Positions 30,229-57,265 of a DNA stretch of 64,000 nt are shown here, one piece after another. The notes under the pieces were generated by a model. It ran no database searches and was not told the DNA's origin. It saw only the letters and a list, made by a program, of their open reading frames with translations. The DNA lies in contig OZ245056.1 of assembly GCA_965224705.1 (NCBI GenBank), forward strand, positions 2,496,001-2,560,000, written 5' to 3'. This DNA comes from Spirochaetaceae bacterium. Lineage in GTDB: Bacteria > Spirochaetota > Spirochaetia > DSM-2461. The first letter of the stretch is position 1. Each line of letters starts with the position of its first letter. Both the position numbers and the translations under genes were made by a program.

Positions 30229-31823
30229 TGAAGGGAATTGCGATATTCCTGTCATCTTTGTCAGTATTGATTTCAGTCATATTCACGCAAACAGGATGTG
30301 TCAGTACTGTAGAAAATGATGGTCCCTTACAGGAAGCGGACAACAATTCGAATTCGAGTGAACAACCACCTTTTCCTGAACCACAGAATTCCAATGAATC
30401 CCTGACTACCCCCCCGACATCCGAAACAGTTATGAATGATCCCCCGGCAGATGAAACAGCCATGGTGGCCCCTTCGACAGATGAAACTACCCTGACCCCC
30501 CCCCCGGCAGCCGAAACAGTTATGGATGCTCCCCCAGTAGGTGAAACAGCCATGGATCCCCCTTCGACAGCCGAAACAGCTATGGATGATCCCCCGGCAG
30601 ATGAAACAGCCATGGATGCTCCCCCAGTAGGTGAAACAGCCATGGTGGCCCCTTCGACAGATGAAACTACCCTGACTCCCCCTCCGGCAGCCGAAACAGC
30701 TATGGATGATCCCCCGGCAGATGAAACTACCCTGACTGCCCCTCCAGCAGCCGAAACAGCCATGAGTGATCCCCCAGCATCTGAAACAGCCATGGATACT
30801 CTTCCGTCAGTTGAAACAGTTATGGATGCTCTCCCAGTAGGTGAAACAGCCATGGATCCCCCTTCGACAGCCGAAACAACTATGGATGATCCCCCAGCAG
30901 ATGAAACTGCCCTGACTGCCCCTCCAGCAGCCGAAACAACTATGGATGATCCCCCAGCAGATGAAACTACCCTGACTGCCCCTCCAGCAGCCGAAACAGC
31001 CATGGCGGCCCCCCCGGTAGCCGAAACAGCTATGAGTGATCCCCCAGCAGATGAAACCATCATGGATGCCCCTTCGGCAGCCGTGAAACATGATTCAGGT
31101 GATTTTTCTCCGACTCTGGAAGGTTGGGGCTGGGTATTTCGCTCTGATCTCTCCACTCCAGGCAATTGGCGTTTTTTGAATCGTGAGCGTACAGGAAATG
31201 CAACGAAATTCAATTTTCATTTTGATGAAGAAGGAACCTGGAGCTTCGTATTTGATCAGCAAAATCTATCTGAGGGAGGCCGTAGACGCGAGATCCGCAA
31301 GTTGAGATACAGTAAAGATCTGGGTGTTGAGATCATTGACAGTGGTGAATTGGATTCACAGGTTCTACAGACTGAACAGTATACGGAAGTGCAGAATGAC
31401 CTGGAATCAGTTCCGGAAGAATCTGCTGCTGTGGACAGTCGAACTACTGAAGCTTTGATTCAAGAAGCAGTTAGAAATGGTTCGGCCGTGGAAATTGCTT
31501 CATTGCTGCCGCAATACATGGAAAATGACGTCGACCCTGATGTCCTGGATTCTGTTGTCAATACTCTGGATGATGCTGACGGTTATGAAGAAGAAGTGTT
31601 CAGTGCACTGATATTACTCTCAGATTTCAGTTCCCATCAAAAAAATGCGGAATGGCTGTTTCGGCTGGCATCATTCCTTGCAAAACCTGGAAAAAAAAGA
31701 AGTCTTTCTCAAGCTGTTGTTTTTTATCAGAAAGTTATTGATTCATGGCCGCTTTCCAGGTGGAGGGAACTGGCTGAAGAAAGGCTCATCTGGTTGAAAC
31801 GTCATTACTTCCGATCACAGTAA
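30225..31823 (+). CDS. Predicted lipoprotein with Pro/Ala/Thr/acidic decapeptide repeats and C-terminal TPR
   Basis: Signal peptide ending QTGC; repeat block; C-terminal WLFRLA...FYQKVIDSWP TPR-like motif. Confidence 0.8.
   Translation: MMKGIAIFLSSLSVLISVIFTQTGCVSTVENDGPLQEADNNSNSSEQPPFPEPQNSNESLTTPPTSETVMNDPPADETAMVAPSTDETTLTPPPAAETVMDAPPVGETAMDPPSTAETAMDDPPADETAMDAPPVGETAMVAPSTDETTLTPPPAAETAMDDPPADETTLTAPPAAETAMSDPPASETAMDTLPSVETVMDALPVGETAMDPPSTAETTMDDPPADETALTAPPAAETTMDDPPADETTLTAPPAAETAMAAPPVAETAMSDPPADETIMDAPSAAVKHDSGDFSPTLEGWGWVFRSDLSTPGNWRFLNRERTGNATKFNFHFDEEGTWSFVFDQQNLSEGGRRREIRKLRYSKDLGVEIIDSGELDSQVLQTEQYTEVQNDLESVPEESAAVDSRTTEALIQEAVRNGSAVEIASLLPQYMENDVDPDVLDSVVNTLDDADGYEEEVFSALILLSDFSSHQKNAEWLFRLASFLAKPGKKRSLSQAVVFYQKVIDSWPLSRWRELAEERLIWLKRHYFRSQ
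30402..31091 (+). repeat. Tandem array of ~23 x 30-bp units (consensus peptide MDDPPADETA)
   Basis: Periodic GAAAC(A/T) and CCCCC motifs every 30 nt; C10 homopolymer at 30496-30505. Confidence 0.92.
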
Positions 31824-46825: not shown

Positions 46826-46887
46826 ATGCTTTCTTGACCCCTTCTACTGGCTTCAATACACTGATTTCTCAGTACTCATGCACCTGG

Positions 46888-46985
46888 GAGTCTGTCGGAC
46901 TTTAAGGCTGTGTGAGTATTTTGGCAGCACAGCAGCAGGAAAGAAGAGCGACAATTGAGCCGTGAGGCGTGAGTCCGACAGGCTC
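46888..46985 (-). mobile_element. MITE family A, partial-core copy (98 bp)
   Basis: CTGG|GAGTCTGTCGGA...TCCGACAGGCTC|CCGG. Confidence 0.82.
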
Positions 46986-47020
46986 CCGGGCAGCATCATT
47001 TCATTATACAGGAGTGTTCC

Positions 47021-47812
47021 GTGAAATTTAAGTCCATATTCTGGATATATAACATAATTGTCATATTCGTGCTCCTATCATTCACTCTTATCTCCCTGTT
47101 TGTTTTTGGTTCAATCTACATAGTAGAATACTGGAGCAGGATGTGGGTTGTCACGGCCATCTTTGTCGTTTTAGTTGGACTACTTGATTACTACTTCATT
47201 CTTAATTGGAAACTCTTTGACTTAATGGAAAAAGAAGACTGGCCGGTACTTCTGGCATGGCTGGAGGATAAGATATACAGAAAAGGTAAAATAAAGAAGC
47301 ACTATGTCAACCTTCTGATCAATACGGCATTATCGGTATCCAATCTGGAATCAGTGAGGAAACTGGAAACTGAGATAAGGCACCGAAAAAAAGGATTACT
47401 CCCAAAAGTTGGGGTGTCATTGGGTATCCCCCTGCTGTTGAAACAGAATCACAGGGCCATATATGACTATTATACACAATTTGCGGAGGATGAAAAAACT
47501 TCTATGCGGGAATGGGCCCAATGGTGTCAGGCCTACGCTTCTGAAGATCCAATGTATGCTGTTCTTTTTGAGTTATTGAATAGCCAGGATCCATCTATAA
47601 GTTTACTATCCATGGATTTATTAGAGCAGAATTCGGGGGAACTGGATGAACAGGATATCAGGAAAATCGATGAATTCAAAAGAAGCATCCATTCAAAGTT
47701 AGCTGGTTCAAAGGGTGTCCGCATCCTGCAGGAATCCCGTGAAAGAAGTCTTATCGCCAATGTCATGTCTTCCCGGGTTGATACCGTGCGGGATAAACTC
47801 ATTAACCAGTGA
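47021..47812 (+). CDS. Membrane hypothetical protein
   Basis: SD AGGAG, GTG start; two N-terminal TM helices. Confidence 0.75.
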   Translation: MKFKSIFWIYNIIVIFVLLSFTLISLFVFGSIYIVEYWSRMWVVTAIFVVLVGLLDYYFILNWKLFDLMEKEDWPVLLAWLEDKIYRKGKIKKHYVNLLINTALSVSNLESVRKLETEIRHRKKGLLPKVGVSLGIPLLLKQNHRAIYDYYTQFAEDEKTSMREWAQWCQAYASEDPMYAVLFELLNSQDPSISLLSMDLLEQNSGELDEQDIRKIDEFKRSIHSKLAGSKGVRILQESRERSLIANVMSSRVDTVRDKLINQ

Positions 47813-47831
47813 ATTAAGGAGTTCTTGCCCT

Positions 47832-49337
47832 ATGAGTGTTCGTGTCCGTTATGCACCTTCGCCAACAGGCTTACAGCACATTGGCGGAATTCGTACTGCA
47901 TTGTTCAATTATTTTTTCGCACGGGTCAGTAAGGGGAAATTCATCCTGAGGGTGGAAGATACGGATCAGGAAAGAAGCACTCCGGAAGCCCTCAGCGACC
48001 TGTATTCCAATCTGGAATGGCTGGGTATTGATTTCGATGAGGGCCCCGGAAAAGAAGGGAATTGCGGTCCCTATATACAATCCCTCAGGAAGGAAATCTA
48101 CAGGGAAAAAGCGCAGCATCTGGTACAGATGGGAAAGGCCTATCCCTGTTTTTGTTCCTCTGAGCGCCTGAACCAGATCCGTGAGGAGCAAAAGAATTCA
48201 AAAACTGATATTGGTTATGATCGCAGATGTGAGAGTATTTCTCCGTCAGAAGCTGCCGCCCGCATGGCTTCCGGTGAGCCATATGTTCTCAGATTGAAAG
48301 TTCCCCGGGAGGGTAAAACAGAATTTGCAGACCTTTTGCTTGGCCGTATCAGCCGTAAGAACAAGGATATTAACCCTGATCCTGTTATTCTTAAATCGGA
48401 TGGATTTCCAACCTATCATCTGGCTAATGTCATTGATGATCACATGATGGGCATTACCCATATAATGCGTGCCCAGGAATGGATCCCTTCGGGTCCGCTG
48501 CATGTATTGCTCTACCAGGCATTCAGCTGGAATCTGCCTTTCTACTGCCACCTTCCCATGGTGATGGGAAAAGATGGGCAGAAACTCTCCAAGAGACATG
48601 GAGCAACAGCGGTTTCGGATTTCCGTGCCGCAGGCTACCTGCCCGAAGCCATCATCAATTACATTTCTCTTCTGGGTTGGAGTTATGATGATTCCCGTGA
48701 GTTTTTTACCAGAAACGAGCTTTGTGAATTGTTTTGTATTGAGAAAATCAATAAATCTCCAGCTATTTTCGACTACAGGAAGCTTGAGTGGTTTAATGGT
48801 CAGTATATTCGCAGAAAAGACCCGGAAACTTTAAAAACTGAGCTGAGATCCATATTGGTACAGGATGGAATAATATCCAATCCAATATCAGCTGAGGACA
48901 GGGACATCTTCGAGGGCGCATTCCCCATTGTCCGGGAACGGCTTAAAGTTCTTGGAGATGTATCATCCATGCTGAGATTTCTTTTTGATGACCCCGGAAC
49001 TGGCAATACTGAAGATGCCATACCGAAAAAAATGGATGGTTTGCAGACAGCCGCCGTACTGAGGGCTGGTATTATACTATTGGGCAATGCCCCGGAAGTT
49101 CCCCCTGTTGCCAACCAGACTGCGTGCCGAAAATGGGACGATGACCGGGAGAATGAATTCCGGGCAAAGGCCGATGAATCCGGATGGAAGTTCGGGGTAA
49201 TGATGCAGCCTCTGCGGCTGGCCGTTACGGCCAGCAAGGTCAGTCCCCCCCTGTTTCCGGCAATTCGACTTCTGGGAATTGAGGAATCCCTCCGGCGGGC
49301 AGAACGATTACTGAAGGAACTGGAGGGGACTCTTTAA
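47832..49337 (+). CDS. gltX: Glutamate--tRNA ligase
   Basis: RYAPSPTGLQHIGG (HIGH), KLSKRHG (KMSKS), VSPPLF. Confidence 0.96.
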   Translation: MSVRVRYAPSPTGLQHIGGIRTALFNYFFARVSKGKFILRVEDTDQERSTPEALSDLYSNLEWLGIDFDEGPGKEGNCGPYIQSLRKEIYREKAQHLVQMGKAYPCFCSSERLNQIREEQKNSKTDIGYDRRCESISPSEAAARMASGEPYVLRLKVPREGKTEFADLLLGRISRKNKDINPDPVILKSDGFPTYHLANVIDDHMMGITHIMRAQEWIPSGPLHVLLYQAFSWNLPFYCHLPMVMGKDGQKLSKRHGATAVSDFRAAGYLPEAIINYISLLGWSYDDSREFFTRNELCELFCIEKINKSPAIFDYRKLEWFNGQYIRRKDPETLKTELRSILVQDGIISNPISAEDRDIFEGAFPIVRERLKVLGDVSSMLRFLFDDPGTGNTEDAIPKKMDGLQTAAVLRAGIILLGNAPEVPPVANQTACRKWDDDRENEFRAKADESGWKFGVMMQPLRLAVTASKVSPPLFPAIRLLGIEESLRRAERLLKELEGTL

Positions 49338-49608
49338 GAGGAAGAAAAATCCAAACTAAATTCGGCTTTTCTTTCATTTTTGAGGTATTCTGCCACGAAA
49401 ATGCGGATGCATTCAGGCACCCGTGGGGGCTGTGTCAGGCCAAAGGCGAGTTCTGGCACAGCTCCTTTAGGAGGCCTCATCATTCTTCTACGGTTTAAAT
49501 CTCTGGTGATGGATCCGCCGGGTGGTGTGAAAGAATAATGCAGCCACACCATTGTCCTGGCTATTAACCTTGTTTCATATCTGGATACTCTCCAGCCAGG
49601 CTTTGATT

Positions 49609-50496
49609 TCAGTCTGACTCTATCCGTTTCAACCCATCTCGACTCATGACTAAACGGAATCTCTGAGTACTGTGATTCTGATTACCGAAACCTGTCAGGC
49701 AGATTACAAGGCTGAGGCTGTAGACGCGTTTGCTTTTCATTGCCCGTGGTTTTTCGTTCTCTGCAAATACTGATACCATCTTCTCTGGAGCATCCATACT
49801 TCGCAACAGTTCATCCAGTTTCAGGCGTACTATGTCCGTGACCGTATCCAGACGGATATGAAACTTTCTGAGTCTTTTATTGTTGATGACAATTTTTCGT
49901 CGGTAGTGAATCAGATCTTCCTCCGGATGAATATGCTGAAGAGGGCTTGTAATTGTTTGCCTTGCTCGCAAGACATCGCGAGGGGCATTTCTGGCCTTGA
50001 TAAAACGAACTCGACTGTTCACTCTTCCAGCCTTGTTTCCGGTAGCCTGGTCAGTCAGACGAATCCGTTCATCTGCAACAAGGCCAGGTGCGGTATGTAT
50101 CAGTACCTCCCTCAAAGACTCCTTAATGCGGTCTTTGAAAATGTATGAAACGACAATAGCTAAGATCCATGGAAGACTTTGTCCGGGGAGGTACCTATCT
50201 GCAATAATTGACACAGAAACAGCAAAGGTCATGGCAATTGCAGCTGCGATGCTGGCATAGAGTGGTGATCCTGTCTCCGACGCATATATGCACGCCAGAC
50301 TCCGTAATTCGTACAAAATCCGTTTTACATTAACATCATGCGGCAACAGACTGCTGTCAATTCCTTTCTGAATTCTGGAAAATGGACTGATTTCATACGA
50401 CGGATCAACAAGGTTCGACAGGGATATTGAGGGAACGCCGAATCGAGTCAGGCAGTTTATATCGGAGAAGAAACCGGAAACACCATCAAAATCATG
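49609..50496 (-). pseudogene. 5'-truncated membrane protein gene (probable pseudogene)
   Basis: Frame stays open upstream of the ORF-track start (DFDGVSGFFSDINCLTRFGVPSISLSNLVDP...) until an in-frame TGA at the island edge; no convincing start or SD. Confidence 0.55.
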
Positions 50497-50820
50497 TCAA
50501 AATTCTGGGGCAGCGAGTGGCTTGTGGAACCGCCGGAAGAATCACCTCCCGCGATTTCCCTTAATGAACTCTGTCAGAAGCTGCAGGAGAAATGTACCGA
50601 GGAAGGAGTGGAAAAGGATATAAACATCCATCAAAGCGCGAAAGCTCTCAAAATCCTTTTTCGGCACAGAGGCACAAAAGCCTATAATCTGAAATTTCTG
50701 CTGGAGGATATTTTTGGCAAAAACGCGCTTCACCTGGGATGGAGAATAACCCGCCTGGCCTGTCTGGCTGTTGATAACAATGGGGAAAACCCCATGAATT
50801 ACCTGAATCTCTGTCATTAA
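50494..50820 (+). CDS. Hypothetical ORF, probably the C-terminal remnant of an island gene
   Basis: 108 codons; ATG lies exactly at the junction with the truncated minus-strand gene, no SD; followed by a GC-rich hairpin. Confidence 0.4.
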   Translation: MSKFWGSEWLVEPPEESPPAISLNELCQKLQEKCTEEGVEKDINIHQSAKALKILFRHRGTKAYNLKFLLEDIFGKNALHLGWRITRLACLAVDNNGENPMNYLNLCH

Positions 50821-50944: not shown

Positions 50945-50973
50945 TTGACCTTTCTCTGGGCTCATAGTATTTT
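50945..50973 (+). promoter_or_regulatory. Putative sigma70 promoter of the NLR-like gene
   Basis: TTGACC-17 nt-TATTTT preceded by an AT-rich UP-like tract; SD AAGGAG at 50983. Confidence 0.45.
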
Positions 50974-50994
50974 GTCTCTGCTAAGGAGAAAAAA

Positions 50995-53900
50995 ATGAAA
51001 TCCATAAGCAACGCCATTGACGAATTTCTTGCCCTGAATGAGCTCGGAAAAACCGATGCCAAAAACCTGAACAAGCTGATCGGGCTGCTGGAAGACGGAA
51101 AAGTGGCAACGGAAAGAGCCGTCCAGGCACTGTATGCCGACGCGAAAAATCCAGATGGCAGTTTCAAGAGCTTCATCATGAGGATCAGGGCGGCCATCAA
51201 GGTTACAGCGGACAATCAGAAAGACAAGCGGTTGAAGGAACGGTTGGAATCCATAAAGATAATCACCCATCAGAAAACCTCTTCCATGCCCGGCTGCATC
51301 AGTATTAAGGCCCACTCCGAACCGACCGGCCATCTGCCAGCGGCCAACCGGCAGTACCCGGATGAAAATTATGTTCAAAGCGAGGCATCCAGTGTGGATG
51401 GCAAGCCGCTCCGCAAGGGGGAATCAAAGCTGTTTCTCAGCTACTCCAATGAGAATGCCCGATTAGCCCACGACCTTAAAGACATGCTGGAACAGCAGAG
51501 TAAAGGCACCGAAAACCCTGTCCGTATTTGGTCCATGCTGGAACTGCTGCCGAACCAGAGTTTCATAGAACAGATCAGGGAGAAGCTGAATGAATGCGAT
51601 TTGGGCCTGGCCTGCCTGTCCCAGGCATTCCTCAATAGTCAATTCATAGCGGAGGAGGAAGTCCCTTTTCTACTGAACCACAATAAGATAATCCTGGTCG
51701 GACTGGATTCCCGTTGGGATGGCCGCTCAAAAACACCCTCAGAATTTTTTGATCTTGTGAAAAAGGGCTTTAACGAAAATATCCCCTACTGGAAAAAGAA
51801 TCTCTCGAAGTTATTAGGAATTCATGTATACCACCTGCGCGATACAGAGTGCGGTGCTTTTTGGGGACAATGTGTAAAGAAAACGCCCCAAGAGCAGTTT
51901 GTCGATGGTTTGATTGGGGATATTCGGAAAGTAATCAAACAGAAAAAAGAACGTGAAGAAAAACAGACCGAAGAATTAAAAAAGAACTGGGAAGTTGGAG
52001 ACCGGCGTTACCTTCCCAGGAACTATGTGGATACTGAAGTAAAAGCATTACTAATTCAAAGCCAAACAGAAGCATCCTCGGAAACGCAAAAACGGCACCA
52101 CGAACAGGATGACAAAGAGCCATCCAAACCAACCAGAGAATTGGTGCCCGACATGTTGAACTGGGCGGCCAACGGAAAGGAACCCGTTTACGCCATACTG
52201 GGCGACTACGGCATGGGCAAAACCTTTTCCTGCCGGATTTTCGCCCAGCGTCTGGATGAAGCGCACAAAAAAACGGCCTCCCTGCCGATTTCACTGTACA
52301 TGGATCTGCGTAAGGTACAGACCTTTGTTAAAGACAAGGGTATAGAACGCCTTCCGCGTCTGGACGAAATGATTGATATGATGCTTAAAAGTCATGGAGC
52401 TGAAGCCGATCCGAAGAGATTTATTGAAGACGCGAGACATGGCCGCGTTCTGCCCATATTCGACGGCCTGGATGAAAAGCTGGTCTACTACACCAGGGAC
52501 ATGCAGTACCAGTTTCTGAACGAACTGATGCGGGTGTTCCCGTTCGAAACAACACGGGACAAATCGAAGATCAAAGTCGTGATTTCCTGCCGGACGCATC
52601 ACTTTGAATCAATTGCCCAACAGTCCGTTTTCCTGCAGGGCCTTTACCGGGATGACAGCATGCGGGGCGACTTCCGGGCCATGGAAATACTGCCCCTGTC
52701 GGATGGAAAGATGCGCCAACTCCTGGAAAAAAGGCTGGGCCGGGATGCCACGTTCCAGGTGTGGGAATACATAGACCGTCAGGAATACCTGGCCGCCCTG
52801 GGCCGCCGTCCCCTTCTGCTCAGCAAACTGCCCGATATGCTCCCGTCCATCCAGTCCATGCAGTCAGAGGGAATTCCCGTCAATGCCGCCGTGTTCTATA
52901 AAGCCCTTATCGATGATGTACTGGCTCGGGATAATCCCAAACATGTCCTTAAAAACCGTCATAAGCACCGCCTTCTGCTGGATTTGGCCCTGTATTTCTG
53001 GGAGAAGGGAGAACAGAGCATGAACATAGACAATTTGAACGACTGGTACCAGGCATGGCTGCGCCGCGACCCGGACATGTTTGCCCAGTATCAGACAGAG
53101 GGCAGTGAACAACTGGAAAAAGACCTGCGCAACTCCACCCTGCTGCTCCGCTTCGGTGAAAAAGAATTTGGTTTTACCCACAGCTCCATGCAGGAATACT
53201 TACTGGCCCGGAAACTGCTTTCAGAATGGGGGCAAAACGGTTATTCCCTGGCCAAACCTGTTTCCCGTTTGACAGAGAAGTTCATTGGCGAAGCCCTCGT
53301 GTTGCTGGAGGACGGCGAACGGCGGAAACTGCGTGAACAGCTTGCTGTTTATGCCGCCAGGCCGGAAAAAACCGCCCACTCACCCCATCAGGATGCCCTG
53401 CTGCTCTGCGTAATCCATTCCGCGGCGGAAGCGGGACGGCCTTTTGAAGCCTTTGATGCCATCCATGTCTTTGGTGTCAATTTCTCCGGTGAACGGATTA
53501 GGGGCCTTCGTGCCCGGAAACTAACCCTGAACCGCTGTGAAATGCCGCTCTGCCGCTGGCAGGAAAGCAATATTGACAACCTGGAGTTGAACGAAACCAA
53601 CATCAACCAATCGGTGTGGGAGGAATGCCGGGTTGAGCAAGCGGCGGGAAATGCCCAGGGGCTGACCTGCGTCAACACAGTGGGGCGGATTGAGGGACTC
53701 TGCAAAAACGGAGGAGGCCGGATATATCCGCTGCCGGAGAAGGCCCCTGTGCCGCCCCCGCCGTACGCGGAGAATAATGTAACATGGGGTCATAACTATG
53801 AAATAAACGCGTTGTCATTCAGCCCCGATGGCCGCCTTCTGGCTTCCGCTTCCTCTGACGACACGGTGAGAATCTGGAGCGCGGAGGGCGAATGCCTGCG

Positions 53901-55719
53901 CGTCCTGGAGGGCCATTCCGATGGGGTTCATAGTGTGGACTTCAGCCCCGATGGCCGCCTTCTGGCTTCCGCTTCCTCTGACAACACGGTGAGAATCTGG
54001 AGCGCGGAGGGCGAATGCCTGCGCGTCCTGGAGGGCCATTCCGATGGGGTTCATAGTGTGGGCTTCAGCCCCGATGGCCGCCTTCTGGCTTCCGCTTCCT
54101 CTGACGACACGGTGAGAATCTGGAGCGCGGAGGGCGAATGCCTGCGCGTCCTGGAGGGCCATTCCGATTGGGTTCATAGTGTGGGCTTCAGCCCCGATGG
54201 CCGCCTTCTGGCTTCCGCTTCCTCTGACGACACGGTGAGAATCTGGAGCGCGGAGGGCGAATGCCTGCGCGTCCTGGAGGGCCATTCCGATTCGGTTTGG
54301 AGTGTGGGCTTCAGCCCCGATGGCCGCCTTCTGGCTTCCGCTTCCTCTGACGACACGGTGAGAATCTGGAGTGCGGAGGGCGAATGCCTGCGCGTCCTGG
54401 AGGGCCATTCCGATTCGATTAATAGTGTGGGCTTCAGCCCCGATGGCCGCCTTCTGGCTTCCGCTTCCTCTGACGACACGGTGAGAATCTGGAGCGCGGA
54501 GGGCGAATGCCTGCGCGTCCTGGAGGGCCATTTCCATTGGGTTCATAGTGTGGGCTTCAGCCCCGATGGCCGCCTTCTGGCTTCCGCTTCCTATGATCAC
54601 ACGGTGAGAATCTGGAGCGCGGAGGGCGAATGCCTGCGCGTCCTGGAGGGCCATTCCGATTGGGTTCATAGTGTGGGCTTCAGCCCCGATGGCCGCCTTC
54701 TGGCTTCCGCTTCCTCTGACAACACGGTGAGAATCTGGAGTGCGGAGGGCGAATGCCTGCACGTCCTGGAGGGCCATTTCCTTTCGGTTAATAGTGTGGG
54801 CTACAGCCCCGATGGCCGCCTTCTGGCTTCCGCTTCCTATGATCACACGGTGAGAATCTGGAGCGCGGAGGGCGAATGCCTGCGCGTCCTGGAGGGCCAT
54901 TCCGGTGGGGTTTGGAGTGTGGGCTTCAGCCCCGATGGCCGCCGTCTGGCTTCCGCTTCTTCTGTCAACATGGTGAGAATCTGGAGCGCGGAGGGCGAAT
55001 GCCTGCGCGTCCTGGAGGGCCATTCCGATGGGGTTCGGAGTGTGGGCTTCAGCCCCGATGGCCGCCTTCTGGCTTCCGCTTCCTATGACCACACGGTGAG
55101 AATCTGGAGCGCGGAGGGCGAATGCCTGCGCGTCCTGGAGGGCCATTCCGATTCGGTTATGAGTGTGGGCTTCAGCCCCGATGGCCGCCGTCTGGCTTCC
55201 GCTTCCTTTGATAAAACGGTGAGAATCTGGAGCGCGGAGGGCGAATGCCTGCGCGTCCTGGAGGGCCATTCCGGTGGGGTTATGAGTGTGGGCTTCAGCC
55301 CCGATGGCCGCCTTCTGGCTTCCGCTTCCGATGACAACACGGTGAGAATCTGGAGCGCGGAGGGCGAATGCCTGCGCGTCCTGGAGGGCCATTCCGATTC
55401 GGTTATGTGTGTGGGCTTCAGCCCCGATGGCCGCCTTCTGGCTTCCGGATCCCATGACGGAACGCATATTATCTGGTCCGTAGACCAGGGCCTTCCGCTC
55501 CGTATTATGAGCGCGCAAATAGACGGGCAGTGGTGGTCGGTGGAAATAGACGAAAACCGCCGTTACACCCGGATGCTGGGCACCGAACTGGCCTGGCAGC
55601 GGGTGTGGCTGCGGCATAAGGACGGTGTGGCTTCCCTGGATGCCTTTGACGGGTTTCGATTGGTGCCGTCACGACACTGCCTGAAAAATGATGCCAAAAC
55701 ACATCTGAATCGACCATGA
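50995..55719 (+). CDS. NLR-like STAND protein: N-domain + TIR + NACHT + pentapeptide-like region + 14 WD40 repeats
   Basis: TIR KLFLSYS...LSQAFLNSQFIAEEEVP; Walker A GDYGMGKT; Walker B IFDGLDE; ISCRT; RPLLL; FTHSSMQEYLLA; GH...FSPDG...W repeats. Confidence 0.92.
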   Translation: MKSISNAIDEFLALNELGKTDAKNLNKLIGLLEDGKVATERAVQALYADAKNPDGSFKSFIMRIRAAIKVTADNQKDKRLKERLESIKIITHQKTSSMPGCISIKAHSEPTGHLPAANRQYPDENYVQSEASSVDGKPLRKGESKLFLSYSNENARLAHDLKDMLEQQSKGTENPVRIWSMLELLPNQSFIEQIREKLNECDLGLACLSQAFLNSQFIAEEEVPFLLNHNKIILVGLDSRWDGRSKTPSEFFDLVKKGFNENIPYWKKNLSKLLGIHVYHLRDTECGAFWGQCVKKTPQEQFVDGLIGDIRKVIKQKKEREEKQTEELKKNWEVGDRRYLPRNYVDTEVKALLIQSQTEASSETQKRHHEQDDKEPSKPTRELVPDMLNWAANGKEPVYAILGDYGMGKTFSCRIFAQRLDEAHKKTASLPISLYMDLRKVQTFVKDKGIERLPRLDEMIDMMLKSHGAEADPKRFIEDARHGRVLPIFDGLDEKLVYYTRDMQYQFLNELMRVFPFETTRDKSKIKVVISCRTHHFESIAQQSVFLQGLYRDDSMRGDFRAMEILPLSDGKMRQLLEKRLGRDATFQVWEYIDRQEYLAALGRRPLLLSKLPDMLPSIQSMQSEGIPVNAAVFYKALIDDVLARDNPKHVLKNRHKHRLLLDLALYFWEKGEQSMNIDNLNDWYQAWLRRDPDMFAQYQTEGSEQLEKDLRNSTLLLRFGEKEFGFTHSSMQEYLLARKLLSEWGQNGYSLAKPVSRLTEKFIGEALVLLEDGERRKLREQLAVYAARPEKTAHSPHQDALLLCVIHSAAEAGRPFEAFDAIHVFGVNFSGERIRGLRARKLTLNRCEMPLCRWQESNIDNLELNETNINQSVWEECRVEQAAGNAQGLTCVNTVGRIEGLCKNGGGRIYPLPEKAPVPPPPYAENNVTWGHNYEINALSFSPDGRLLASASSDDTVRIWSAEGECLRVLEGHSDGVHSVDFSPDGRLLASASSDNTVRIWSAEGECLRVLEGHSDGVHSVGFSPDGRLLASASSDDTVRIWSAEGECLRVLEGHSDWVHSVGFSPDGRLLASASSDDTVRIWSAEGECLRVLEGHSDSVWSVGFSPDGRLLASASSDDTVRIWSAEGECLRVLEGHSDSINSVGFSPDGRLLASASSDDTVRIWSAEGECLRVLEGHFHWVHSVGFSPDGRLLASASYDHTVRIWSAEGECLRVLEGHSDWVHSVGFSPDGRLLASASSDNTVRIWSAEGECLHVLEGHFLSVNSVGYSPDGRLLASASYDHTVRIWSAEGECLRVLEGHSGGVWSVGFSPDGRRLASASSVNMVRIWSAEGECLRVLEGHSDGVRSVGFSPDGRLLASASYDHTVRIWSAEGECLRVLEGHSDSVMSVGFSPDGRRLASASFDKTVRIWSAEGECLRVLEGHSGGVMSVGFSPDGRLLASASDDNTVRIWSAEGECLRVLEGHSDSVMCVGFSPDGRLLASGSHDGTHIIWSVDQGLPLRIMSAQIDGQWWSVEIDENRRYTRMLGTELAWQRVWLRHKDGVASLDAFDGFRLVPSRHCLKNDAKTHLNRP
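53788..55479 (+). repeat. 14 tandem 123-bp WD40-encoding repeats of very high DNA identity
   Basis: GH codons at 53788, 53911 ... 55387 (period exactly 123 nt). Confidence 0.97.
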
Positions 55720-55858
55720 TTCCTAATCGCAGAATGAGATGCGATTGCCCCGAGGGAATAAAACAAGATACCTGTCTTTTCAAATAAAATCATCCTGCTT
55801 GCCCAAGCTGACTGAAAAATGCTACGTTAGTTCTCATTCTATAAGTAAGGATTAACCT

Positions 55859-57265
55859 GTGCCCAAAGAGAAACAAGCGAACAACATCGGTAATGAACAT
55901 GGTGCATCAATGGAAAAGATGGTCTCTCTCTGCAAAAGAAGAGGATTCGTCTATCCTTCCAGCGAGATCTATGGAGGTTTATCTGCCACCTGGGACTATG
56001 GCCCATTGGGCGTTGAACTGAAGAAAAACATTCAGGAAGCCTGGTGGAAGGAGATGGTGCAGAGGCATACCAATATTGTTGGACTTGATGCTGCCATCAT
56101 GATGCATCCACGAACCTGGGAGGCCTCAGGCCATGTTGAGAATTTTTCCGACCCCCTGGTGGATTGCAAGAAGTGTAAAACCCGATTCCGGGCTGATCAT
56201 CTGGAAGATATTCGCAAAGAACAGGAAATCAGCCATGATAACTGCCCTGAATGCGGAGGGGAGCTGACCGAACCCCGGCAGTTCAATCTTATGTTTACCA
56301 CCCACATGGGACCAGTCGCAGACACAGGCTCCCTGATTTACCTTCGGCCTGAAACAGCCCAGGGTATCTTTGTCAATTTTAAAAATGTTGTGGATACCAC
56401 AAGGGTGCAGATTCCTTTCGGCATCGCCCAGGTTGGAAAGGCGTTCCGGAATGAAATAACCACTAAGAACTTCATTTTTCGCACCTGTGAATTTGAGCAA
56501 ATGGAAATGCAGTACTTCGTGAAACCGGGTACTGAGGACGATTTTTTTGAGGAATGGAAGGCCAAACGTCTATCCTGGTATGTTGACCGCCTGGGTATTA
56601 TGGCAGACCGGCTTCGATATTCAGAGCATGGCCCGGATGAACTGGCCCACTATGCAAAGGTGGCCTTTGATATTCAGTACAAATACCCGTTTGGATGGCA
56701 GGAGCTGGAAGGCATTCATTCACGGACGGACTATGATTTAAGACGGCATGGCGAGTTCTGCGGGAAGGAAATCAACTATCTGGATCCGGTCGATAACAGC
56801 CGCTACATTCCCTATGTTATTGAGACTTCTTCCGGCCTTACCAGGAGCGTATTGGTGACTTTGATGGATGCCTACCATGAGGAAAATATTGGGGAACAAA
56901 ACGGGAAGCCTGATATCCGCACCGTACTGCATCTCCACCCCGACATTGCCCCGGTGAGAGTGGCTGTTTTTCCCCTGGTTAAGAAGGATGGACTGGCTGA
57001 GCTTGCCCGGGATCTGGAATTGGAGCTCCGGGAGGACTATTCCACTTTCTACGATCAAGGCGGAGCAATCGGACGCCGTTATCGCCGCATGGATGAAATT
57101 GGAACTCCCTTCTGTGTGACCATTGACCATGAAACAAAAGAGAATAAAACAGTAACTCTCCGGTTTCGGGATTCCATGGAACAGGTGAGAGTTCCTCTTG
57201 ATGGTGTCAGTCAGGTTATCCGCAGGGAAAGCAGGGAATACGTTCGGAAAACAACTTCGGTTTGA
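55859..57265 (+). CDS. glyQS: Glycine--tRNA ligase (alpha2 type)
   Basis: LCKRRGF, WDYGPLG, YLRPETAQG, FRNEIT, EFEQME, IGRRYRRMDEIGTP. Confidence 0.96.
   Translation: MPKEKQANNIGNEHGASMEKMVSLCKRRGFVYPSSEIYGGLSATWDYGPLGVELKKNIQEAWWKEMVQRHTNIVGLDAAIMMHPRTWEASGHVENFSDPLVDCKKCKTRFRADHLEDIRKEQEISHDNCPECGGELTEPRQFNLMFTTHMGPVADTGSLIYLRPETAQGIFVNFKNVVDTTRVQIPFGIAQVGKAFRNEITTKNFIFRTCEFEQMEMQYFVKPGTEDDFFEEWKAKRLSWYVDRLGIMADRLRYSEHGPDELAHYAKVAFDIQYKYPFGWQELEGIHSRTDYDLRRHGEFCGKEINYLDPVDNSRYIPYVIETSSGLTRSVLVTLMDAYHEENIGEQNGKPDIRTVLHLHPDIAPVRVAVFPLVKKDGLAELARDLELELREDYSTFYDQGGAIGRRYRRMDEIGTPFCVTIDHETKENKTVTLRFRDSMEQVRVPLDGVSQVIRRESREYVRKTTSV

Follow-up and report, generated by a model that had tools for sequence, protein, structure and literature searches.

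Introduction

Among the described systems most similar to the gene reported here are the HET-E-family receptors of the fungus Podospora, in which codons 7, 9, 25 and 27 of the WD40 unit are positively selected (PMC1805685). These codons flank the conserved positions 8 and 26, and the d-a loop and b-c turn that contain them are part of the top face of the propeller. Bacterial NLRs with WD repeats of 80-90% internal identity have also been reported, with the suggestion that they might diversify like the fungal ones (10.1101/2020.01.06.895854), and variable hotspot sites have been described in highly repetitive WD40 proteins (PMC5587647). In the literature that we searched, bacterial NACHT proteins with WD40 sensors are predicted immune receptors without an identified trigger. 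Here we describe one such gene, encoding a protein with an NNH6 domain, a TIR domain, a NACHT ATPase and 14 WD40 units, in 64,000 nucleotides of a Spirochaetaceae bacterium genome (assembly GCA_965224705.1, contig OZ245056.1, positions 2,496,001 to 2,560,000; this whole stretch is "the window", and its source genome is G000).

The gene was first noticed in an original prediction, made from the nucleotide sequence, as a one-gene NLR-like receptor. The analysis below supports that description, including a TIR domain that appears intact, and adds what the prediction missed: the NNH6 domain, the hot codons of the repeats, the border of the cassette, a paralog, and the size and effector swaps of the family.

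Domain architecture of the window gene

The open reading frame (ORF) at 50995-55719 on the forward strand is open throughout, and its product has 1574 residues. The features of the gene and its upstream region are as follows.

50995..55719, forward strand: NLR-like gene, NNH6-TIR-NACHT-pentapeptide-14xWD40-tail (ORF, Pfam, structure model and fold matches)
50995..51324, forward strand: NNH6 domain, residues ~1-110 (Pfam PF22737, above cut-off)
51424..51939, forward strand: TIR domain, residues ~144-315 (TIR_2 match, TIR fold matches, conserved Glu)
51658-51660, forward strand: conserved Glu222 codon of the TIR domain (E in 101/111 aligned rows)
52000..53289, forward strand: NACHT module (Pfam, alignment, fold matches)
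52201-52224, forward strand: Walker A GDYGMGKT, residues 403-410 (alignment)
52462-52476, forward strand: Walker B DGLDE, residues 490-494 (alignment)
53173-53199, forward strand: winged-helix motif FTHSSMQEY, residues 727-735 (alignment)
53452..53673, forward strand: pentapeptide-like beta-helix linker, residues ~820-893 (weak Pentapeptide_4 match, periodic strands in the model)
53782..55503, forward strand: 14 WD40 units of 123 bp (domain and tandem-repeat scans)
55504..55719, forward strand: C-terminal non-repeat tail (kept in the paralog and relatives; without a Pfam match)
50945-50973, forward strand: candidate sigma-70 promoter TTGACC-17-TATTTT (consensus match at chance level)
50983-50988, forward strand: Shine-Dalgarno sequence AAGGAG

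Walker A, Walker B and the FTHSSMQEY motif are near-invariant over 111 aligned rows, with G408, K409, D490 and E494 each conserved in 110 of them; the ATPase motifs are thus as intact as first proposed. The Pfam score for NACHT is 23.1 bits, below the 26.7 cut-off. A structure model of residues 1-932, built from 77 sequences and with the WD40 region outside it, reached a predicted local distance difference test score (pLDDT) of 87.8 and recovered both the TIR and the NACHT fold, the outcome of a check that the original prediction had proposed. The top Foldseek matches of this model are the NACHT proteins NLRC4, NOD2 and NLRP3 (NLRC4 E 7.6e-13). The NACHT module aligns with NLRC4 (8fvu) at Z 21.9 and a root-mean-square deviation (rmsd) of 3.5 over 349 residues, and the TIR part with SARM1 (9hq0) at Z 13.5 and rmsd 2.4 over 130 residues.

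The TIR domain is also recognized by Pfam (TIR_2, residues 147-255, E 3.9e-8, above cut-off). Residue E222, one of three glutamates in the motif SQFIAEEEVP, is the conserved one, present in 101 of 111 aligned relatives with 6 gaps, in agreement with the acidic residue proposed at the catalytic position. Its reading as the putative catalytic Glu rests on motif position rather than on a residue-by-residue superposition. In front of the TIR domain, NNH6 matches Pfam above cut-off at residues 14-70, and residues 1-110 form a block of pLDDT 80-97. To our eye the order of its helices and strands looks like that of a winged helix, a resemblance unconfirmed by search. PDB sequence searches with the NNH6 profile and the TIR domain returned nothing informative, an ESM Atlas search with residues 1-135 gave no usable match, and no literature on NNH6 in this bacterial family was found.

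The linker was predicted to be pentapeptide-like. The model agrees, showing a repeating beta-strand pattern at residues 820-893, and the Pfam match is weak (Pentapeptide_4, E 5.7e-4, below cut-off). The 14 proposed WD40 blades correspond to 14 counted units, from which two 7-blade propellers would follow by unit count. An NCBIfam scan of the whole protein found no family above cut-off. Upstream, the claim of a dedicated ribosome-binding site and promoter stands for AAGGAG, whereas the promoter match does not rise above chance, being one of 2 matches observed where 1.0 ± 1.0 are expected by chance; the region upstream of the paralog has a similar TTGAC..TAGATT plus GAGGA. The gene had further been called GC-richer than its flanks. 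This holds for the repeats (0.63) and fails for the TIR part, which at 0.457 lies under the flanks (0.48-0.49). Outside the repeats, GC at third codon positions ranks at the 90th percentile among 1539 ORFs, and the GC peak is mostly due to the repeats.

The highest 19-residue hydropathy is 1.13 and no hydrophobic segment suggests a signal peptide or membrane anchor; the protein looks cytoplasmic on this measure. Such a profile speaks against a host-directed role, in which a TIR/WD40 effector would be exported and interfere with innate signaling in a mollusc. Bacterial TIR proteins acting on animal hosts exist, and the nearest named relatives of the window protein are those of animal symbionts. 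However, a 1574-residue protein with a full NACHT switch, whose architecture recurs in free-living phyla, fits export poorly, and we regard this explanation as very improbable.

The WD40 array varies mainly at four codons

The WD40 units are 123 bp, or 41 residues, long, and the internal units are 94% identical (94% by TRF; 93.7% in the paralog comparison). Of the alleles found among the 12 internal units, 23 distinct ones change the amino acid and 3 are synonymous. Codons 7, 9, 25 and 27, only 4 of the 41 in a unit, take 12 of the 23 amino-acid-changing alleles (binomial P 3.6e-7, computed against an even spread over the unit codons), and codons 5 and 6 are variable as well. The variation of the array was observed before PMC1805685 was consulted, while the choice of these four codons comes from that paper, to whose text (d-a loop, b-c turn, conserved positions 8 and 26), not its figure, the unit register was matched. 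Per-site nonsynonymous difference (pN) in the window array is 0.438 at the hot codons and 0.017 at the other codons, against a synonymous value (pS) of 0.034 across the array. The set of residues at positions 7, 9, 25 and 27 differs in all 14 units.

The same pattern recurs in relatives. Regular units were numerous enough for analysis in 40 genes, drawn from 110 family loci and four additional genes, and 36 were tested after excluding the window gene, its paralog, the copy in congener G009 and one gene with 47-residue units. In all 36 relatives, whose kin are not independent of one another, pN at the hot codons exceeds pN at the rest. Where internal identity is at least 80% (n=21), pN at the hot codons exceeds pS at the rest in 21/21 and pS at the hot codons themselves in 19/21. 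The propeller surface is under diversifying selection at these four codons.

Near-identical arrays are hard to assemble (PMC12222747), and this one might be suspected of being an artefact of assembly, or of having arisen by neutral slippage as the gene decays. Against this, the frame is open over all 14 units, each unit differs at the hot codons, nonsynonymous changes are in excess, the pattern recurs in 36 other genes, and comparison of the paralogs gives pN/pS values under 1 for all non-repeat domains. Taken together, we consider artefact or decay extremely unlikely.

When the units of three genes were compared, units 1-13 clustered by gene and unit 14 clustered across genes. Unit identity is 72.5% between the paralogs, compared with 93.7% within the window gene and 77.3% within the paralog, whose repeats were homogenized separately. 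Concerted evolution and re-amplification from one blade both account for this grouping. Templated mutagenesis by a diversity-generating retroelement (DGR) was rejected: no third copy of the repeat, as a template would be, was found in G000, and the DGR-like pair that was found lies elsewhere with another target gene. That element (G000:C1:2202573-2212753, outside the window) pairs a template of 118 nt (2210369-2210486) with the 3' end of a 1034-residue ORF (2205543-2205660) at 16 differences, 14 of them at adenines. Beside it lie a second similar ORF (606 residues), a small accessory-like ORF and a reverse transcriptase split over two ORFs; the ORFs are presumably of the C-type lectin/FGE-sulfatase and Avd kinds. 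The window also holds a degenerate coding tandem repeat of 30/60/90 bp at 30409-31083.

An intact paralog lies within a defense locus

G000 has a second intact copy of the gene at C1:551127-555878, 67% identical over residues 1-932. On one side it has a type II-B cas9-cas1-cas2-cas4 locus, whose array counts 12 repeats, and on the other a SNF2 helicase/type III Mod-Res block. Between the two paralogs pS is 0.48 outside the array, and all non-repeat domains are under purifying selection. The two genes make a natural test pair, with front ends that are 67% identical and propeller surfaces that differ, complemented by a near-identical strain without the cassette at the site of the window gene (below).

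The type II-B locus itself (G000:C1:540916-563423; L040, L041) encodes a Cas9 of 1609 residues, and 1.3 kb of sequence containing transposase-like ORFs interrupts its array. Elsewhere in G000, three similar 426-residue reverse-transcriptase frames, at C1:332290, 1071852 and 1652954, one with an internal stop, are probably group II intron copies.

The gene was recently gained between gltX and a glycine-tRNA ligase gene

As first reported, the gene stands between gltX and a glycine-tRNA ligase gene, here of the dimeric type. The neighboring features are these.

47835..49337, forward strand: gltX, left flank (TIGR00464)
49609..50490, reverse strand: hypothetical gene with its frame open to the junction (frames, run X3 contig, 45-bp remnant in G009)
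50485..50820, forward strand: 3' remnant (last ~110 codons) of a foreign radical-SAM/DUF2344 gene, left end of the cassette
55859..57265, forward strand: glycine-tRNA ligase gene, dimeric type, right flank (identity with G009 resumes at 55785)

The original prediction held that the gene was acquired and proposed examining this locus in relatives. None of the 9 congeners examined has the NLR gene at the junction. In 7 of the 9 the two housekeeping genes are ~90-140 nt apart, and in G009 and G007 the junction holds other inserts of 1.8 and 7.9 kb. Among the contigs listed, one from sequencing run X3, labeled a mollusc metagenome, is 98-99% identical to the window over 46956-50486 and then runs on for 5.3 kb in other, unaligned sequence (depth 3.9). 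At the same point the hypothetical gene, which is internally ~426 nt shorter than in a sister strain, has its 5' end cut by the cassette, and the radical-SAM remnant begins. The remnant is 74% identical to residues 723-831 of the 837-residue radical-SAM protein P0158. It is the only trace of that gene in G000, and none was found in G009. The gene is present in 9 of 13 congeners, and four copies compared are 33-41% identical to the remnant.

The X3 strain's divergence, the lost 5' end and the start of the remnant at ~50486 together define the left border. On the simplest reading a different spirochaete lineage would have donated a cassette of ~5.3 kb, from 50486 to ~55784, which still has attached to it the end of the gene that lay upstream in the donor. 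The junction comparisons show that the gene was recently gained horizontally. The cassette contains no integrase or transposase and no partner effector gene, and an ESM Atlas search with a 108-residue ORF gave no usable match. A tRNA-site island was rejected because there is no tRNA in the window or in 7 of the 8 loci scanned; the gltX-glyS junction instead looks like an insertion hotspot without a tRNA. Deeper-covered contigs in runs X2, X3 and X4 contain pieces ~85-90% alike to the remnant and the NACHT region, which suggests that relatives live in the same communities.

Several further observations concern this junction and its surroundings. The insert in G009 holds an FGE-sulfatase-domain gene (L027:9227-10060), and that in G007 spans L034:3877-11786. 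Over the intergenic stretch 46887-46987 of the window, all four mapped runs show very high depth together with many loose ends, as would be expected of a repeated element common to many contigs; G009 lacks ~46879-46987. Directly after gltX, 21 other letters replace 155 nt (49337-49492) in runs X3 and X4, a small strain-variable insert by this comparison.

The family is large, patchy and swaps its effectors

A profile of the family retrieved 698 cluster representatives at E<=1e-30 from 13 phylum-level groups. In genome contigs 112 of 177 candidate stretches were confirmed, of which the best 80 were kept, and in metagenomes 51 of 584. A single-protein scan of genome contigs found none of these relatives; the alignment-based scan did. 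Phage records contained no match to the protein, and plasmids only 14 distant partial NACHT matches. Among 13 congeners there are one close copy (G009), two distant copies (both in G001) and one TIR-only match (G012). As judged from these scans, the distribution is patchy.

A quick tree of the NACHT module with 96 rows places the window gene in a clade with its paralog, one Spirochaetaceae bacterium record and three unnamed proteins, at an SH-aLRT support of 99. The sister clade holds proteins of Bathymodiolus gill symbionts (97), within a Campylobacterota/Desulfobacterota group (100). Both G001 copies are placed elsewhere in the tree, on long branches.

Of 106 related N-termini, counted by hand from the best 5 families per protein, 80 have TIR_2, 75 NNH6 and 54 both; the TIR slot holds PNP_UDP_1 in 4, and a second ATPase comes first in 12. 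The rarity first implied for the design was thus overstated, the NNH6-TIR front end being common, its N-terminal part being listed in Pfam as a domain associated with NACHT, and similar designs being in print. By these domain matches the family swaps predicted effectors (TIR_2, PNP_UDP_1) in the TIR slot, both of which are among the NAD+-targeting effectors of NACHT proteins (10.1101/2022.07.19.500537). In mostly Chlorobi relatives (L054, L056-L060, L064, L068, L125, L127, L128, L150) NNH6 is replaced by the second ATPase, giving ATPase-TIR-NACHT-WD40 proteins of up to ~1880 residues.

The persistence of NNH6 when the effector changes bears on another explanation, a non-immune signaling or regulatory STAND in which NNH6 would bind DNA and the TIR domain would serve as a scaffold or signal maker with no depletion of NAD+. 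The winged-helix-like order of the NNH6 model and the housekeeping genes that make up most neighbors would suit such a regulator. However, the winged-helix identity is unconfirmed, and neither diversifying selection on a surface, nor swaps between toxin-type effectors, nor patchy gain would be expected of one. Nor would frequent truncation be expected (in 32 of 61 closed reading frames we counted under 12 units), and the cassette brings no partner effector. We think this reading quite unlikely.

A stand-alone immune receptor is the favored function

We consider it probable that the window gene encodes a stand-alone intracellular immune receptor, a bacterial NLR, directed against phage or other invading elements. 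This reading draws on selection at the hot codons, the paralog beside CRISPR and restriction-modification (RM) genes, two GmrSD genes near one G001 relative, the effector swaps, the patchy distribution and the cytoplasmic look of the protein. By analogy with NLRC4, Apaf-1, HET-E and Avs, the monomer would rest auto-inhibited until a foreign protein binds the top faces of the two 7-blade propellers, with specificity set by the d-a and b-c loop residues at unit positions 7, 9, 25 and 27. Nucleotide exchange would then lead to oligomerization, and the clustered TIR domains may cleave NAD+ via Glu222, so that the infected cell is arrested or killed. For the window protein itself, both phage defense and NADase activity are what we infer from this scheme. 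Exchange between the near-identical 123-bp units by recombination, or their re-amplification from a single blade, would keep the scaffold uniform and reshuffle the variable codons, and specificity could thereby be re-tuned quickly. The gene would move between spirochaetes as a cassette.

Several observations weigh against this interpretation. PADLOC was applied to 108 neighbors of 14 loci, out of 283 neighbors of 36 loci and with no control set, and gave clear defense matches within 4 kb at only 2 of the 14; Pfam on 89 neighbors of 33 loci, also with no control, found defense- or mobile-type genes at 7 of 33. Most relatives, like the window copy, sit among housekeeping genes, and some Verrucomicrobia and Arcobacter copies have constant neighbors, which suggests vertical retention. 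Defense and non-defense STAND clades are interspersed (PMC13581612). No PADLOC model fits the whole protein in the 2023 library, which is without the later Avs families. The PADLOC search first proposed as a check thus yielded only partial matches, of HEAT-ARM_XIII to the repeats, SAVED_TIR to residues 144-229 and BrxD to the P-loop. At the hot codons of relatives pS is elevated too (0.09-0.26, compared with 0.157 overall), which means that multi-base changes and common ancestry account for part of the height of these ratios. RNA run X8, the only RNA run mapped, gave no cover over the gene, which proves nothing.

The same receptor logic could serve a non-phage ligand, such as competitor-injected proteins, a modified host protein (a guard model) or mollusc-host factors, in a HET-E-like recognition of non-self. 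The four diversified codons are those of fungal allorecognition receptors, window DNA occurs in mollusc metagenomes, and the sister clade is that of the gill symbionts. However, the wider family is mostly found in free-living Chlorobi, Verrucomicrobia, Myxococcota and Acidobacteriota, the paralog adjoins CRISPR and RM genes, and the bacterial STANDs tested in PMC13581612 sense phage proteins. We judge a non-phage ligand unlikely, though the least so of the alternatives.

More speculative, and a shade less likely again, is that an NLR cassette that can be re-programmed passes among bacteria of bivalves and sulfidic marine habitats (spirochaetes, SUP05 gill symbionts, Campylobacterota, Desulfobacterota). 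Recipients would rebuild the propeller from one blade and shuffle four codons, yielding a quasi-adaptive, HET-E-like repertoire whose ligands might be other than phage, for example proteins of competitors or of the host. If so, the window copy, whose array is the most uniform and presents 14 different binding patches, would have been re-tuned only recently and would be seen here soon after transfer.

Comparison with known systems

Measured against the immune-receptor reading, which we prefer, the closest bacterial category is bNACHT (10.1101/2022.07.19.500537). The window protein shares its Walker A and D[GAS]hDE Walker B signature (here DGLDE), a NACHT fold with a winged-helix extension, and the tripartite layout of N-terminal effector, NACHT and C-terminal repeat sensor. 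NNH, TIR, PNPase, pentapeptide and beta-propeller all appear in the domain list of that paper, whose Fig. S3 legend for tested proteins names neither beta-propeller nor pentapeptide. A TIR fold with a conserved Glu would likewise place the TIR domain with NAD+-cleaving TIR effectors. The Avs1-24 anti-phage STANDs (PMC13581612) have the same effector-STAND-repeat sensor design, with proposed ligand-triggered oligomerization and cell death, but their sensors are mostly TPR-like and WD40 sensors are described as predicted clusters. In the open-access literature we found no phage or other experimental test of this clade, a point on which the supplements of 10.1101/2022.07.19.500537 and PMC13581612 may bear, and no characterized system with exactly this architecture; the original prediction's statement to that effect held up.

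Apaf-1 is similar in joining a STAND ATPase to two WD40 propellers. It is an AP-ATPase/NB-ARC protein with a CARD, whereas the top Foldseek matches of the window model are NACHT proteins.

The WRAP propellers of the cyanobacterial STAND Npun_R6612 (10.1101/2022.03.13.484165) come closer in their repeats: a STAND ATPase carries 14 near-identical blades with few synonymous changes, each homolog has amplified its blades independently, and the system has a link to TIR and a proposed role in innate immunity. There the TIR domain is on a second, neighboring STAND protein; here everything is in one polypeptide, in a spirochaete.

The HNWD/NWD proteins HET-E, HET-D and HET-R of Podospora anserina (PMC1805685, PMC12222747) combine NACHT with high-identity WD40 units (80-100% identical within a gene, a range that holds here), probably as a double propeller, and show positive selection at codons 7, 9, 25 and 27 flanking 8 and 26, as in the window gene. 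In contrast, the window gene is bacterial, carries NNH6-TIR in place of the HET effector (Pfam finds no HET match), and has a pentapeptide spacer and 41-residue units. Furthermore, its repeats are homogenized per gene and unshared between the paralogs, whereas the Podospora genes exchange units. If swapping the four variable codons alters sensing, the repeat-shuffling specificity of fungal HET-E would be shown in bacteria, and the array would offer a scaffold for programmable sensing. Both architecture and repeat pattern are already in print. The value of this gene is therefore as a clean, testable example of a widespread design, not as a new one.

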